Shown here one piece after another: positions 8,228 through 12,411 of a DNA stretch of 64,000 nt; position 1 is the first letter of the stretch, and each line of letters starts with the position of its first letter. The notes under the pieces were generated by a model. It ran no database searches. It was not told where the DNA came from and worked only from the letters and a program-made list of their open reading frames with translations. Origin of the DNA: an uncultured Verrucomicrobiae bacterium (GTDB taxonomy: Bacteria; Verrucomicrobiota; Verrucomicrobiia; Palsa-1439); contig CAWFPN010000003.1 of the NCBI GenBank assembly GCA_963817685.1, positions 401,772 through 465,771 on the forward strand. The letters are read 5' to 3'. The position numbers and the translations under genes are program-made.

Positions 8228-8428
8228 CCACCCGTTAGAAAATCCAGTCCCAACTGTAGCGGCGGTTTGCCGCCCCGACCCCTCGGCCTCTCCTCTCGTC
8301 GAGTATGACCGCCGAAATCCCAAGTCGTAGGTAGGGCGTGTTCGCCGAACGCGCCGCGTCCGTTCTTGGAGAGTTTTCAGTGCACAGAGAAAACGAGAGA
8401 TTCAGCACGAATTCACGAAGGCAGGATT

Positions 8429-8611
8429 CTACTTCAGGCCGAGCTTGGCCTTGACTTCGGCGGTGGAGTAACTGGCTTTGCCTTCGTTCACGGCGCGGGC
8501 TTCGAGTAGATCGAGATAATCATGCAGGTCTTGCATCCGTTCCCGCATTTTGCGAATTTCCCTCAGCACCTGCGTTTGCTGCTTCTTAAATTTGCCGGTT
8601 GGCCTAATCAT
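8429..8611 (-). CDS. Hypothetical small protein (60 aa), flanked by REP family D hairpins.
   Basis: ORF MIRPTGKFKKQQTQVLREIRKMRERMQDLHDYLDLLEARAVNEGKASYSTAEVKAKLGLK. Charged and coiled-coil-like. No homology recognised. Confidence 0.3.
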   Translation of the reverse strand: MIRPTGKFKKQQTQVLREIRKMRERMQDLHDYLDLLEARAVNEGKASYSTAEVKAKLGLK

Positions 8612-8873
8612 AAACGTCTTTCCGATGCCCGATCTTCCGAGCGCGGAATTTTAGGCCGAAAGCCCGTGACAAGACAAGGCCTGTGTACCGGAGCGCGCGG
8701 TGCTTGCGCGCAAGCAGCATGATTCACAGGCTCGTTGTTTCTGTCGCCGTAGGCGGTCTTGCCCGCCTTAGGTAGGGCGCGTTCGCCGAACGCGCCGCTT
8801 TCCGAATATGACTCATCGTCCGTGGACTTTTGGACGTGCTGGGTATGAAATGCGGACCGTGCGGACGCGAACG

Positions 8874-9791
8874 TTACCCTTGGAAGATACTATCCCGATG
8901 GTACCGCAGAAACTCTGGCGATGGTTCCGCCAGTTTTTCCGGCAGCCGGATGTTTGCACCTTCGTACTGAGCGAAGTTCTGTTCCAGCGCTGGCTGGGGA
9001 AAGTAATGCTTGAGTTGCTTGCTCAGCACAAGTCGGAGCTTCTCATCCAATGTAATCAACCCTGAATCGAACGCCGCGTCGTGGAGACACGACAAGCACA
9101 GGCCGTTGCGAGGGTCCACCCGCTCGTTTGGAAAATCGCGCCACGGCTTGATATGACTCGCCACCAGAAGGCGCGGAACAGAGATTCCTGTAATGCAGCA
9201 GCGAACACCGTAAGCGCTAAGGATGGCTTGCCGAAAGAATTGCTGCCCCCGGCGCACGCGCACAGTCGCCTTCGCTTCCGTTGGTCCCGCTGGTGGTCTT
9301 ACAACACGCACCTTATCACGCTGAAGGAAATCTACTTCGCGGCCTTCATCCTTCGTAAACAAATCATGAAGCAACTGCTCACTCTCCGGACCGAGCACGT
9401 TGATGTTTTCATGGAACTCCGACCAAAGCTTTGTGGCTTCCACAGACACACCCCAGAGCCCTTTTATTCCCCGGGCCTTCTGAATAGGGTCAAGCGCCGC
9501 AAAATTGCAGAGCTTCATGGCAAGACTGCTCGGCGTGCGCCCCATTCTCTTGGCCACGTCGATGATGATCGGGTTGCCGCGATGAAGCTGCCCGAATGGC
9601 AGCTTGCAGTAAAGATTCAACGCCATGAGCGAATGCTCTCGCGTCCATCTCACGCTCGGCGCTTTGGTCATGGGGTCATTGTGGGCGAAAGCAACTGATT
9701 TGCGAAGCAGGAAATTACACCTCGTCACTAAGGAGAAATCCAGATGCCTAAGAACATCCGAATCGAGCTTGATTCGAACGATCTTGGCCAA
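8874..9791 (-). CDS. HNH_2-family (PF13391-like) endonuclease, an orphan restriction-endonuclease-like protein.
   Basis: C-terminal ...RRGQQFFRQAILSAYGVRCCITGISVPRLLVASHIKPW...NGLCLSCLHDAAFDSGLITLDE matches the HNH_2 motif. The true start may be the internal M at 9671. No methyltransferase is adjacent. Confidence 0.6.
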   Translation of the reverse strand: MAKIVRIKLDSDVLRHLDFSLVTRCNFLLRKSVAFAHNDPMTKAPSVRWTREHSLMALNLYCKLPFGQLHRGNPIIIDVAKRMGRTPSSLAMKLCNFAALDPIQKARGIKGLWGVSVEATKLWSEFHENINVLGPESEQLLHDLFTKDEGREVDFLQRDKVRVVRPPAGPTEAKATVRVRRGQQFFRQAILSAYGVRCCITGISVPRLLVASHIKPWRDFPNERVDPRNGLCLSCLHDAAFDSGLITLDEKLRLVLSKQLKHYFPQPALEQNFAQYEGANIRLPEKLAEPSPEFLRYHRDSIFQG

Positions 9792-9986
9792 GCCGTCGAT
9801 GGATTAGAAGTGCGTGCTAAACAGTGGGAGGATACCGCTGCTTATCTCCGAACCGGGGAATCCCCCGAAGATGGCTTCATGCCCGAAGAATGCCGGGACG
9901 CCGAGGAAGCCGATGCCATCGCGCGCCATTATCGGTCCATTCTTGAGAAAATTCGCCGGCAAGCAGGGGAGCAAGGCTGTTTGTGA
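9744..9986 (+). CDS. Hypothetical small acidic protein (80 aa).
   Basis: Strong SD AAGGAG 7 nt upstream of the ATG. Net charge about -7. Overlaps the next ORF start by 4 nt. Confidence 0.5.
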   Translation: MPKNIRIELDSNDLGQAVDGLEVRAKQWEDTAAYLRTGESPEDGFMPEECRDAEEADAIARHYRSILEKIRRQAGEQGCL

Positions 9987-10267
9987 TCCGCAGGGCGTTC
10001 TGTATCTACGTTGATACGGTCGTCGAGGGACCTGTGCCGGTGGAATGGAATGAATTTGGCAGACCGGTCGTATACGCTTCTGAAATCGAGGCGCAACGCG
10101 TTATCGCGAAAGATGTGATTGACCGGCTGCAGCAGTTTCTCACCGACGAACGCGACTATGAAGATGCGTTGACCGTGGAGGAATACATCGTAGAAGTCGA
10201 TGTTTGGCCTGACGGCTCAATCGTTGATACTGATGGGAACTATTTCGGCATTCACAGTCGGCAATAA
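9983..10267 (+). CDS. Hypothetical small, highly acidic protein (94 aa).
   Basis: GTG start overlapping the upstream stop (coupled). Sequence ...EDALTVEEYIVEVDVWPDGSIVDTDGNYF... Net charge about -14. Confidence 0.45.
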   Translation: MIRRAFCIYVDTVVEGPVPVEWNEFGRPVVYASEIEAQRVIAKDVIDRLQQFLTDERDYEDALTVEEYIVEVDVWPDGSIVDTDGNYFGIHSRQ

Positions 10268-10326
10268 TGACGTTCCAACCGAGCGCGAATGGCGGAAAAC
10301 AGCCCAAGGCGTATCTGGTAGGCAAT

Positions 10327-10349
10327 GATACATGGTAGTGCCATGTATC
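10327..10349. repeat. Hairpin repeat HP1 (GATACATGG-TAGTG-CCATGTATC) upstream of vsr.
   Basis: One of three copies of a ~45-bp unit AGGCRAYGATACATGGTAGTGCCATGTATCCnnnCnnnACRACAGAS. The others are at 10744-10766 and 10911-10933. Confidence 0.7.
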
Positions 10350-10385
10350 CCAGCCACACGACAGAGATTCTTCGATAAGCTCAGA

Positions 10386-10775: not shown

Positions 10776-10910
10776 ACAACAGAGACAGCTTCAGGCGGCG
10801 GCTCGGCGGGAGCCTCGCCCTCCCAGCGGAATTGGACACTCGCCACTAGTCACTAACCACTACTCCGCGTTTAGGGTGACAAATCAAGCACAACACCTCC
10901 GGCAGGCGAT

Positions 10911-10933
10911 GATACATGGTAGTGCCATGTATC
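10911..10933. repeat. Hairpin repeat HP3.
   Basis: Identical 23-bp hairpin core to HP1 and HP2. Confidence 0.7.
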
Positions 10934-10989
10934 CACGCTGAACGACAGACGCATGGAGGTTAGCGGGGAAGAGGGAAAACGGCGCGGCG

Positions 10990-12235
10990 CTTTCGGCGAA
11001 AGCGCCCTTGTATCTTCAAATGGTGGTATTCTCGCCTTTGGTTTCCCACAGGAGTGGGAGCAGCAGAGCGGCCCTTGGGGGGCATGCCCCCCAAGGGCGC
11101 GGCGCGGACGAGATCGTAGTCGCCCTCGGTTCGGTTCACGCCTGCCCGTTGGTAGCCAGATCCGTCCGCGCTTTCTGTTGCTAAACTCGAACAGTTGCCA
11201 GAGCGGTCACCGGCCCCCTGGGCGCCGCGACCTGCTCGCATCGCAAGGAGGAGTCTAACCAATGTCATCGCCCCTCGTCTATGTCGGAATGGATGTTGCC
11301 AAAGCCACGCTGGATCTGTGTGCCTTGGGCTCCGCCCAAACGCAGCGCCGCCACCTGCCCAATGACGCCAAGGGCCATCGCGCCTTGTTGCGCTGGTTGC
11401 GCCCACTCGGCCCGGTCCAGGTCGTCTGTGAAGCCACCGGCGGTTATGAACGCGCTGCCGTCGTGGCGCTGCAGCAGGCGGCCATCCCCGTCAGTGTCGT
11501 CAATCCACGCCAAGCCCGCGATTTCGCCCGCGCGCAAGGCCGGTTGGCCAAAACCGACCGCATCGATGCGCAGGTTCTGGCTGAGTTCGGTCAACGGCTG
11601 CAGCCCTCGGCCACGGCCGTTGCCAGCCTGGCCCAACGTCAATTGGCCGAATTGGTGGCGCGCCGCCAGCAAGTCCAGCAGTTGCGCACAGCCGAACACA
11701 ACCGCTTGGAGCACACCGTCCACCCGGCGCTTCGCCGCCAGGTGCGTCGTCATCTGCTGGGACTGGATCGCCAGCTCCAACAACTCCAAACCTGGATTGC
11801 CGAGTTGGTCCAAGCCCAGCCCCTGCTGGCCCAAAAGGTAGCGCGGCTGTGTCAGGTCGGCGGTGTGGGCCACATTACGGCTGTCGTGTTGCTGGCCAGC
11901 ATGCCGGAATTGGGCACGCTCAATCGCCGGCAAGCAGCCGCCTTGGCCGGAGTAGCGCCGTTGAATCGTGACAGTGGGCCTCGTCGGGGCCACCGGCTCA
12001 TCGGAGGCGGCCGGGCCGTGCCACGGCGGGCATTGTACATGGCTGCCCTGGTCGCGGCCTATTCCAACCCTCGATTCAAGCAGTTCTATCAACGACTGCG
12101 CGCCGCAGGCAAAGCGCCGAAGGTGGCGCTGGTGGCCGTGATGCGCAAGCTCATCATCCTGCTCAATCACCTGCTCAAAACCCCAGAATTCCAACCCACA
12201 TGAAAAGACAGTTGCTACCAAGGGCATTCGACACT
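10990..12235 (+). mobile_element. IS110-family insertion sequence (boundaries approximate).
   Basis: Contains an IS110-type transposase. The perfect palindrome CCCTTGGGGGGCATGCCCCCCAAGGG lies upstream of tnp. A 26-bp direct repeat GGMATTSGACACTCGCCACTAGTCAC occurs at 10818 and 12211 (REP family B context; IS110 elements often target REPs). No terminal IRs, as expected for this family. Confidence 0.5.
11262..12203 (+). CDS. IS110-family transposase (DEDD_Tnp_IS110 plus Transposase_20 domains).
   Basis: [22 protein letters not shown]...[10 protein letters not shown]... N-terminal DEDD RuvC-like domain, and C-terminal ...[30 protein letters not shown]... 313 aa. Confidence 0.85.
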
Positions 12236-12332
12236 CGCCACTAGTCACCAGCCACTAACCACACCCAGAGGCGGCGAGGCGTGCCTGTGGAATATCTCCA
12301 TCGTAGAAAAAGGATGGCCGACAAATTTCCCT

Positions 12333-12355
12333 GCAAAGGGCAGTTTTTTCACCAC
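12333..12355 (+). terminator. Weak candidate intrinsic terminator.
   Basis: CCCTGCAAAGGG (4-bp stem, GCAA tetraloop) followed by CAGTTTTTTC. Lies downstream of the IS110 tnp. Confidence 0.2.
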
Positions 12356-12400
12356 TAGCCACTAACCACCCTGTCCGCCGAAGCCTTGGCGAAGGCGGAT
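12351..12400. repeat. REP family B copy.
   Basis: CCACTAGCCACTAACCACC followed by the palindrome TGTCCGCCGAAGCCTTGGCGAAGGCGGAT. Related copies at 10838-10862, 12228-12262 and 43083-43150. Confidence 0.6.
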
Positions 12401-12411
12401 TACCCCCACCC

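Follow-up and report, generated by a model that had tools for sequence, protein, structure and literature searches.

How does a cell tolerate a restriction enzyme when no methyltransferase protects its DNA? The question is raised by a 4-kb segment in a stretch of 64,000 nucleotides from an uncultured Verrucomicrobiae bacterium (the window). The segment lies between an ACT-domain (GcvR-like) gene and lpd, and it carries a gene for an HNH_2 nuclease that diverges from a row of three genes: smallA and smallB, which encode small acidic proteins, and a gene for a Vsr-family nicking endonuclease. We found no DNA methyltransferase gene in the window by tblastn with a C5 methylase, by a six-frame motif scan, or by Pfam annotation of the 46 large open reading frames (ORFs), which agrees with a preliminary description of the segment, made from the sequence alone, in which neither HNH nor Vsr had a methyltransferase (dcm) companion. 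The features that it listed (HNH_2, Vsr, an IS110 element, two overlapping acidic ORFs, and hairpin repeats) are all present where it placed them. The genes with which we are mainly concerned are as follows.

8874-9671, minus strand: HNH_2 nuclease, 265 amino acids (aa), PF13391
9672-9743: divergent intergenic region between the HNH gene and smallA, 72 bp
9744-9986, plus strand: smallA, 80 aa, acidic, new family
9983-10267, plus strand: smallB, 94 aa, acidic, new family, GTG start
10332-10775, plus strand: Vsr-family nicking endonuclease, 147 aa; alternative start at 10386

With middling confidence, we read the segment as a small, horizontally acquired defence islet made of three layers: the cassette formed by these four genes; a remnant, orf60; and hairpins resembling repetitive extragenic palindromic (REP) elements, together with an IS110 insertion sequence (IS). 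Its nuclease, Vsr, IS, and REP content is ordinary, and the smallA-smallB module is the new part. Two answers to the question present themselves: the nuclease may have switched to modification dependence, as in MspJI, or smallA and smallB may act as its protein partner.

Recurrence of the Cassette

We fetched about 100 loci around homologues (designated here by L numbers) and searched them with the window proteins by tblastn. In the window and in the following loci, smallA and/or smallB is the immediate divergent neighbour of the HNH gene: L075-78, L087, L089, L091, L093, L095, L097-101, L104/105, L112/113, L178/179, and L180/181; the gap is 46-77 bp where measured (72 bp in the window). The window, L093, L097, L098, L099, L100/101, L164-167, L175, and L178 have Vsr, or fragments of it, downstream of smallB (or smallA). 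The Vsr-bearing loci L164-L167 and L175 fall outside the HNH-divergent set; in L175, smallB and Vsr come after HNH_2 on the same strand. The four-gene order of L178 is that of the window, at identities of 69% for HNH, 69% for smallA, 66% for smallB, and 50% for Vsr. Because smallA and smallB are rare families, we do not attribute the co-occurrence of the four genes to chance. HNH on the minus strand and smallA-smallB-Vsr on the plus strand form one recurrent cassette, whole or decayed, in at least 15 unrelated metagenome contexts of the Verrucomicrobiota type. The two nucleases had been described as orphans, a view that the four-gene cassette overturns.

Among the neighbours of homologous cassettes are toxin-antitoxin pairs, AIPR/Abi, NERD, and DUF2726 genes, and DUF3427 helicases. 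The occurrence of such cassettes in many unrelated contexts near defence genes bears out the earlier view that the region is of a defence or mobile type and not housekeeping. PADLOC supported that view in part, as single-gene models were matched but no complete known defence system was.

Methyltransferase Linkage of the HNH_2 Family

The relatives of the HNH nuclease differ from it in the company that they keep. Close relatives (63%-77% identity) have a C5 methylase (PF00145) divergently upstream in L081-83, L085, L086, L092, L108/109, and L121, and convergently downstream in L087 and L088; in L087, smallA/smallB, HNH, and the C5 methylase are found together. Distant relatives (38%-42% identity) occur in methylase-HNH-Vsr or related orders in L143, L147, L148, L154, L159, and L161, and also in L119, L132, L151, and L158. 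Because HNH relatives are repeatedly linked to C5 methylases, with or without Vsr, a restriction-modification ancestry is indicated, and from these linkages the cassette appears to be a methylase-less derivative of a 5-methylcytosine (5mC) restriction-modification lineage composed of a C5 methylase, HNH_2, and in some cases Vsr.

Two loci preserve what look like the traces of a lost methylase. L175 has a 69-aa methylase stump (with the FCGIGG motif only), followed on one strand by HNH_2, smallB, and Vsr. In L176, from Neisseria gonorrhoeae (NZ_CP119142.1, 370362-379099), the order is pheS, Vsr, two short C5-methylase fragments, HNH_2, and pheT; Vsr (145 aa) and HNH_2 (249 aa) are both intact, and the latter is 41% identical to the window HNH over 97% of its length. 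Because methylase remnants adjoin an intact HNH gene in both loci, the methylase would have been lost beside an intact nuclease. Intact HNH genes with no methylase within about 6 kb on either side occur in L075, L079, L084, and L104; no methylase lies in the 6 kb downstream of HNH in L091 or in the 6 kb upstream of it in L093.

L175 is the last 2.3 kb of a 51.7-kb viral-labelled contig (IMGVR_UViG_3300045972_000789), and its cassette may be the host flank of a prophage call; its HNH_2 protein has 331 aa and a zinc-ribbon-like N-terminal extension. NZ_CP119142.1 is labelled a plasmid and, at 2.17 Mb, is chromosome-sized.

The pheS-pheT site in N. meningitidis is reported to hold NmeDI, a Vsr-containing 5mC system (PMC7973814), whose R.NmeDI is a characterized Type II enzyme of 351 aa (PMC2095814). 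The gonococcal locus resembles this V-M-R arrangement in that a full-length HNH_2 homologue comes after Vsr and C5-methylase fragments. The 249-aa gonococcal ORF is a possible orthologue of the 351-aa R.NmeDI, for which the published description gives no domain. Unlike the window cassette, the Neisseria pheS-pheT genes are co-oriented and not divergent, and they have no smallA or smallB among them.

MspJI depends on modification, and its gene has a C5 methylase gene and vsr as neighbours, an association described as “dispensable” (Zheng et al., 2010; PMC2938202). As in the MspJI-type loci (M.MspJI, V.MspJI, MspJI), the association with methylase and vsr is kept in some genomes and lost in others, and an intact nuclease survives without the methylase. 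MspJI, however, joins an SRA-like reader to a PD-(D/E)xK (Mrr-like) nuclease, whereas the window protein joins an N-terminal domain of about 90 aa to HNH_2; the modification dependence of MspJI is proven, whereas for the window HNH we infer it; and no genes like smallA or smallB have been described at MspJI loci.

Properties of the HNH_2 Nuclease

We fixed the start of the HNH protein at MTKAPSV by alignment with 23 homologues. The resulting 265-aa protein is basic (isoelectric point [pI] 9.5) and consists of an N-terminal domain of about 90 aa with no family match and a C-terminal HNH domain. Its assignment to HNH_2 held when tested with hidden Markov models (HMMs; PF13391, E = 2e-13). The PADLOC model PDLC04132 (“HNH”) matched over nearly the whole length (E = 2e-91), and PDLC03546 (“Type II restriction enzyme”) matched over the full length (9e-37). 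NF045808 (PT-DNA restriction endonuclease) matched the C-terminal part only, at 66 bits, under its cut-off of 180. The family has 2555 matches; the best 120 clusters are 69%-100% identical to the window protein (all but two of them 69%-77%) and 250-299 aa long. An alignment of 24 sequences has 81 invariant columns (for example H173, N189, and H197), all of which are present in the window copy. Given their near-full length and these invariant columns, the methylase-less copies appear to be under selection.

The nearest solved structure is that of VcaM4I (6yex), which aligns with the C-terminal half (E = 1.6e-18, profile positions 91-267). The N-terminal 100 aa gave no Pfam match at E ≤ 5 and no PDB profile match, and no EVE, SRA, PUA, SBD, or wH reader was recognized in that domain. 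VcaM4I is a modification-dependent EVE-HNH enzyme, and the wH-HNH enzymes are Type IV enzymes in which a small reader forms the N-terminal one of two domains (224-283 aa in all; PMC11037411). The window protein resembles both in its HNH_2-type catalytic C-terminal half, its size, and its two-domain layout. Those enzymes are usually encoded by solitary genes, whereas the family of the window HNH is often found beside methylases; the gene is solitary here and in several lineages, and many relatives have an adjacent C5 methylase. Pfam HNH_2 also holds the Type II enzymes AlwI, BbrI, and HphI (PMC5714182).

Considered as a Type II system, the cassette contains a nuclease of a restriction endonuclease family and has no adjacent methylase; considered as a Type IV enzyme, the HNH protein contains the catalytic domain and has no recognizable reader. 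A palindrome-avoidance scan of the window for a hint of the recognition site gave nothing striking, and CCWGG was not depleted. By analogy with MspJI, the window HNH is most likely a stand-alone restriction nuclease that is independent of a methylase, being either modification-dependent or otherwise harmless to its own DNA. It may be of Type II or Type IV; from the gene contexts we favour methylase independence, with a methylase acting in trans from elsewhere in the genome as a real alternative.

A classical Type II endonuclease is not expected to persist intact without protection. If a C5 methylase encoded elsewhere provides it, the locus would be part of an ordinary Type II system split across the genome: Vsr would repair 5mC deamination, and smallA and smallB would have a regulatory part or none at all. 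Pairing of the HNH family with C5 methylases recurs in several layouts, but the 64 kb of the window contain no methylase, and at least four other lineages whose HNH is intact have none in the roughly 6 kb that adjoin it on each side. The full-length match to the PADLOC Type II model, the presence of AlwI, BbrI, and HphI in HNH_2, and the coexistence of smallA/smallB, HNH, and the C5 methylase in L087 all suit a split system, as does the retention of Vsr, which makes sense only if 5mC is present. A split system is harder to square with L175 and N. gonorrhoeae, where an intact HNH gene adjoins the stumps of a methylase; so many independent restriction endonucleases protected in trans would also be unusual. 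We regard this explanation as unlikely, though it deserves to be kept in mind.

Two New Families of Small Acidic Proteins

The proteins encoded by smallA and smallB are two uncharacterized conserved families and the new element of the segment. The GTG start of smallB overlaps the stop codon of smallA by 4 nt (GTGA), and the pIs are 4.6 and 4.2, respectively, so that the pair is acidic and translationally coupled, as had been proposed; the 4-nt overlap recurs in L164. Alignments of 32 smallA and 29 smallB sequences contain 16 and 11 invariant positions, and the window copies of both are full length, with none of the invariant columns altered. A smallB profile retrieved 353 representatives at E ≤ 0.001 among 1.84 billion proteins. 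About 10 of the 353 are fusions of 181-198 aa in which a smallA-like half precedes a smallB-like half; we inspected six of them (P0222, P0223, P0239, P0251, P0283, and P0340). The existence of natural fusions implies that smallA and smallB work together, probably, to judge from the fused sequences, as a heterodimer.

AlphaFold models of both proteins have high pLDDT scores. That of smallA (91.6) has an extended N terminus followed by two long helices, and that of smallB (91.2) has a beta-beta-alpha-alpha-beta-beta (alpha/beta) fold. Neither model has a significant structural match (best PDB matches, E > 1), and the best viral fold match of smallB is to uncharacterized phage proteins (E = 0.06, TM about 0.5-0.6). 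Neither protein matched an entry in Pfam, PADLOC, PHROG, NCBIfam, or PDB, and neither was found in 50,697 phage and 72,556 plasmid records; among 2.9 million viral contigs, smallA had no locus and smallB had one. The N-terminal pattern of smallA (IRIELDSNDLGQ...) had suggested a ribbon-helix-helix regulator, which has no HMM or fold support and which we set aside as speculation.

Modules of a response-regulator-like gene (PF19192) and Vsr have been reported in the neighbourhoods of C5 methyltransferase/HNH_2 restriction genes (PMC8011034). They resemble the window locus in having a small accessory gene directly upstream of vsr, near HNH_2 nucleases and C5 methylases. They differ from it in that smallA and smallB have no match to PF19192 or a receiver domain and are predicted to adopt different folds; no member of either alignment matched PF19192 (Response_reg_2) at E ≤ 5.

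As a view of the pair that is not biased toward HNH, we used look-ups begun from smallA and smallB homologues, which covered five lineages. In all five, the smallA/smallB module stands head-to-head, across 46-94 bp, with a defence-type gene or operon. The partner is HNH_2 in L178 and L180, NOV_C in L168, and an HTH_3 gene heading a Schlafen-like (SLFN) helicase operon in L164 and L172; L164 also has DUF2726. Similarity between modules does not follow the partner. The relatives of smallA include one that is 75% identical beside the HTH_3/SLFN-helicase operon (L164) and one that is 68% identical beside NOV_C, and those of smallB include one that is 66% identical in L178 and one that is 62% identical beside the HTH_3/SLFN-helicase operon (L172). 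Since the closest relatives of the pair have different partners, the module has been shuffled between nucleases and has not co-evolved with one of them.

Could smallA and smallB be an immunity or antitoxin pair that has replaced the methylase and that blocks HNH, Vsr, or both until infection or stress removes it, after the manner of a toxin-antitoxin or abortive-infection system? Their position is suggestive, as they hold the divergent place that a methylase takes in sister loci and come first in an operon with a nuclease. So are their charges, acidic against a basic HNH and a still more basic Vsr (pI 11.5), and the joint action shown by natural fusions; the neighbours of homologous loci are also rich in toxin-antitoxin pairs. 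However, intact HNH or Vsr homologues occur without smallA and smallB (L079, L084, L096, L168) or with only one of them (L098, L100, L175, L180). L079 and L084 have an intact HNH and neither the pair nor a methylase, and the intact Vsr proteins of L096 and L168 (no pair) and of L098, L100, and L175 (one member) belong to the same clade as that of the window. Because such homologues occur, the pair is not an obligatory antidote, and a strict toxin-antitoxin relationship is weakened. A specific inhibitor would also not be expected beside the unrelated NOV_C and HTH_3/SLFN-helicase genes, and we found no structural similarity to known immunity proteins. We therefore consider immunity in this sense doubtful.

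This leaves smallA and smallB with an accessory role that is associated with defence nucleases, on the 5′ or promoter side of these, and with Vsr in about half of the lineages. Our best guess, drawn from charge, position, and fusion only, is that the acidic pair modulates neighbouring basic nucleases or their expression and is not an enzyme. In a stronger form of this idea, which we put forward only tentatively and think unlikely, the pair, separate or fused, would be an unrecognized, portable partner module for restriction-type nucleases that needs no methyltransferase. It would serve either as a safety catch that frees the nuclease upon infection or in sensing or regulating the promoter that it shares with the nuclease gene, and it would bring Vsr under the same control. 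Should the pair indeed restrain or regulate nucleases, restriction and defence islands would gain a new class of accessory factor, and Vsr a possible regulator; if not, the region is a typical eroding defence islet, and its value lies in the annotation of two new protein families.

The DNA upstream of the pair has several recurrent elements. The 72-bp HNH/smallA intergenic region has a GCGAAGC-GAAA motif in common with other HNH-linked loci. In L087, L089, L095, L097, L098, L099, and L168-L171, a conserved block, AACCTGGCCAGGTGTATCTGCCGAGATATG, lies about 30 nt before the start of smallA/smallB, whichever divergent partner (HNH_2 or NOV_C) the operon has; within it, two CCWGG sites overlap in a palindrome, ACCTGGCCAGGT. 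The block is missing from the window copy, which has a plain AAGGAG ribosome-binding site in its place. In L164-L167 and L172-L174, an inverted repeat, GTGTTCC-N5-6-GGAACA, between the HTH_3 gene and smallA/smallB looks like an operator for the HTH_3 protein.

The Vsr Nickase

Vsr is a T:G mismatch nickase that accompanies 5mC systems, and no partner 5mC methyltransferase for it was found within the 64 kb. Its membership in the family, like that of the IS110 transposase in its own, holds at the HMM level: the protein scored 101.8 bits with TIGR00632 (cut-off 97.85) and 58.2 bits with PF03852 (cut-off 27), and it matched the structure of E. coli Vsr (1cw0) with E = 5e-14. We aligned 24 sequences, comprising E. 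coli Vsr, the window Vsr, and 22 homologues; residue numbers follow E. coli Vsr. The catalytic residues D51, H69, and D97 and the DNA-intercalating residues F67, W68, and W86 are all kept, as in the Vsr of E. coli dcm-vsr, and the change of H64 to D is the common state among the homologues collected. In E. coli, by contrast, vsr overlaps the methylase gene, whereas in the window it has no dcm partner and comes after two small acidic genes; the two proteins also differ in their zinc ligands and in the N-terminal motif, which is altered in the window.

The alteration is a gap of 4-5 residues near the N terminus, which removes a conserved “KRS” stretch; HMM alignments begin at model positions 11-13. 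The first ATG of vsr lies inside a hairpin repeat, and its last codons enter another. The preliminary description had called this a genuine Vsr, which is right as regards the HMM score and the catalytic and intercalating residues and needs qualifying as regards the missing KRS and the hairpins at both ends. From its sequence, the protein is a member of the family that may have been functionally trimmed.

These features bring up the possibility that the cassette is a relic in decay: what a lost restriction-modification system has left behind, without a present function and worn down by REP elements and an IS. REP hairpins overlap both ends of a vsr gene whose N-terminal motif is partly deleted, but the catalytic and intercalating residues that the gene encodes are kept. 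The methylase is missing, IS110 is adjacent, orf60 resembles a fragment, and many homologous loci have a fragmented Vsr or a lone smallA or smallB; against this, HNH, smallA, and smallB are full length with every invariant column kept, the 4-nt coupling overlap is preserved, and the four-gene order is intact in another lineage (L178). A relic appears improbable to us on this balance.

The idea that smallA and smallB are anti-defence cargo, DNA-mimic anti-restriction proteins on a mobile element, which the preliminary description had also entertained and which draws on two small, very acidic proteins beside restriction genes and on the weak resemblance of the smallB fold to uncharacterized phage proteins, we reject as highly improbable, because the pair is essentially absent from the phage, plasmid, and viral collections, has no match in PHROG or in Pfam or NCBIfam (the last two would cover ArdA/KlcA/Ocr-type families if they hold them), and is always found in chromosomal defence-island contexts.

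A lone smallA in L168-L171 lies 2 kb from an operon (1-3950) that encodes a UvrD/PD-(D/E)xK helicase-nuclease, a Vsr 59% identical to that of the window, and an RNase_T-like exonuclease, possibly a repair or defence trio.

The Segment as a Proposed Defence Islet

In the reading that we prefer, an islet in three layers, the core cassette would descend from loci with a C5 methyltransferase, HNH_2, and in some cases Vsr, with the methyltransferase now absent. The HNH_2 nuclease would be intact and work alone without a cognate methylase, by analogy with MspJI. smallA and smallB would be an accessory unit whose expression runs divergently from the nuclease promoter, and Vsr would be transcribed with them. 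The fragment-like orf60 and the REP-like hairpins that flank it would be the second layer. As to the order of events, we infer that REP-like hairpins later invaded the ends of vsr and that IS110 was inserted into a REP-like array beside lpd.

That the segment is accessory rather than housekeeping is supported by evidence that is indirect but strong, namely the many unrelated contexts in which the homologous genes lie. The GC content of 8230-10862 is 0.557, compared with 0.611 for the window, at about the 5th percentile of 2.6-kb windows, and GC at third codon positions (GC3) is 0.54-0.63 in HNH, smallA, and smallB, compared with 0.79-0.86 in the flanking housekeeping genes. A lower GC had been claimed for the whole segment; it applies to 8230-10862 and not to the IS110 element, whose GC is 0.636. 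Two other stretches of the window, 1-2600 and approximately 39600-40800, are as low in GC as the cassette (0.51-0.56). The nearest genomes are Verrucomicrobiota/Limisphaerales metagenome-assembled genomes, in which identity to the ACT protein is at most 74%; an exact-protein look-up of the ACT protein gave no match. Of 73 genome loci with a GcvR-like gene, not one has lpd, E2, or the upstream glycosyltransferase-like gene within 10 kb. Because GC and GC3 are below those of the flanks and the flanking genes differ at every homologous locus, we conclude that the segment is of foreign origin.

The cassette is not an assembly artefact, because a short-read contig from a separate assembly (L001) reproduces 8687-10824 save for one single-nucleotide difference (at 9723, in the HNH/smallA intergenic region). 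L001 stops at 10824, the start of a 43-nt repeat that flanks IS110; the end at this point suggests a graph branch, possibly from the presence and absence of the IS, or from multiple copies of it, in the sample.

Several observations weigh against the islet reading. None of the 73 loci, of which the best is 74% identical, has an ancestral gcvR-lpd junction against which an insertion would show. The methylase search covered the 64-kb window, and a cognate methylase elsewhere in the genome is possible; a methylase partner as frequent and as tightly spaced as that of the HNH relatives argues for a classical Type II enzyme, which would be lethal without it. The N-terminal domain of HNH matches no known modified-base reader. 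Charge, position, and fusion are the whole basis of the role proposed for smallA and smallB, whose closest relatives adjoin different partners, which argues against a partner-specific interaction. The N terminus of Vsr is atypical, and the protein is possibly impaired.

Repeats, orf60, and the IS110 Element

The remaining features of the segment are as follows.

8227: end of the ACT-domain (GcvR-like) gene, left boundary of the segment
8328-8357: 30-nt palindromic (REP-like) repeat, copy 1, left of orf60
8429-8611, minus strand: orf60, 60 aa, basic, no family match
8769-8798: 30-nt palindromic repeat, copy 2, right of orf60
10314-10365: 52-nt hairpin repeat, copy 1, overlaps the 5′ end of vsr
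10732-10783: 52-nt hairpin repeat, copy 2, overlaps the 3′ end of vsr
10820-10862: 43-nt repeat (CACTAGTCACTAACCAC core), left of the IS110 element
10863-12214, plus strand: IS110-family element, approximate limits taken from the flanking 43-nt repeats
10898-10949: 52-nt hairpin repeat, copy 3
11262-12203, plus strand: IS110 transposase, NF033542
12215-12257: 43-nt repeat, right of the IS110 element, with a partial third copy at 12349-12369
12412, minus strand: stop codon of lpd, right boundary of the segment

A 23-nt palindrome, GATACATGGTAGTGCCATGTATC, has three exact copies (at 10327, 10745, and 10911) where 0 are expected, and the folding z-scores of the hairpins are -3 to -4.5. The island of L164 contains a homologue of orf60 (64% identical), and over 27 aa orf60 and the C-terminal tail of an HTH_3 protein in that island are 85% identical. 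To judge from these alignments, orf60 may be a fragment-like remnant that resembles an antitoxin tail.

The IS110 transposase matched NF033542 (5e-65), PF01548 (3e-29), and PF02371 (1.3e-16), and it has DEDD and Transposase_20 domains. The element is like the RNA-guided IS110 transposases (NF033542) in this domain composition, in its long 5′ non-coding region, and in its insertion in a repeat array. The 5′ non-coding stretch is about 400 nt long and contains a strong hairpin and a perfect 14-bp palindrome (11071-11098); a search of 7000-13000 for a bridge RNA with Rfam gave no match. The window has no second IS110 copy by which to fix the ends of the element, and plasmid blastn gave short transposase matches only. 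Many IS110-family elements insert into REP-like arrays. A partial third copy of the 43-nt repeat lies 114 nt beyond the right copy, and the arrangement is consistent with insertion of IS110 into a REP-like array next to lpd.

Surroundings

Outside the segment, according to Pfam annotation of the 46 large ORFs, the window carries housekeeping genes (MutS, PPK2, adenylate kinase, exosortase) and an IS1595-type transposase, matched by one ORF that is at least 200 aa long (PF12762, 6e-45). At 13591-13606 (minus strand), lpd has what looks like a +1 frameshift, which splits it into two overlapping ORFs (12412-13533 and 12938-13831); the sequence reads ...GITFGEP/QDR... where ...GEPKIDLDKL... is expected; either lpd is a pseudogene or the long-read assembly contains an indel error.

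Just upstream of the ACT-domain gene, at 7319-7654, a 112-nt unit occurs three times in tandem (100%, 96%, and 70% identical), and each unit includes a 22-nt arm whose inverted copy, at 7608-7629, pairs with it. Beside the E2 gene, at 15268-16665 on the minus strand, a gene with a GC content of 0.55 and a GC3 of 0.64 encodes a 465-aa protein with many TPR repeats; as its GC is below that of its neighbours, it may also be accessory.

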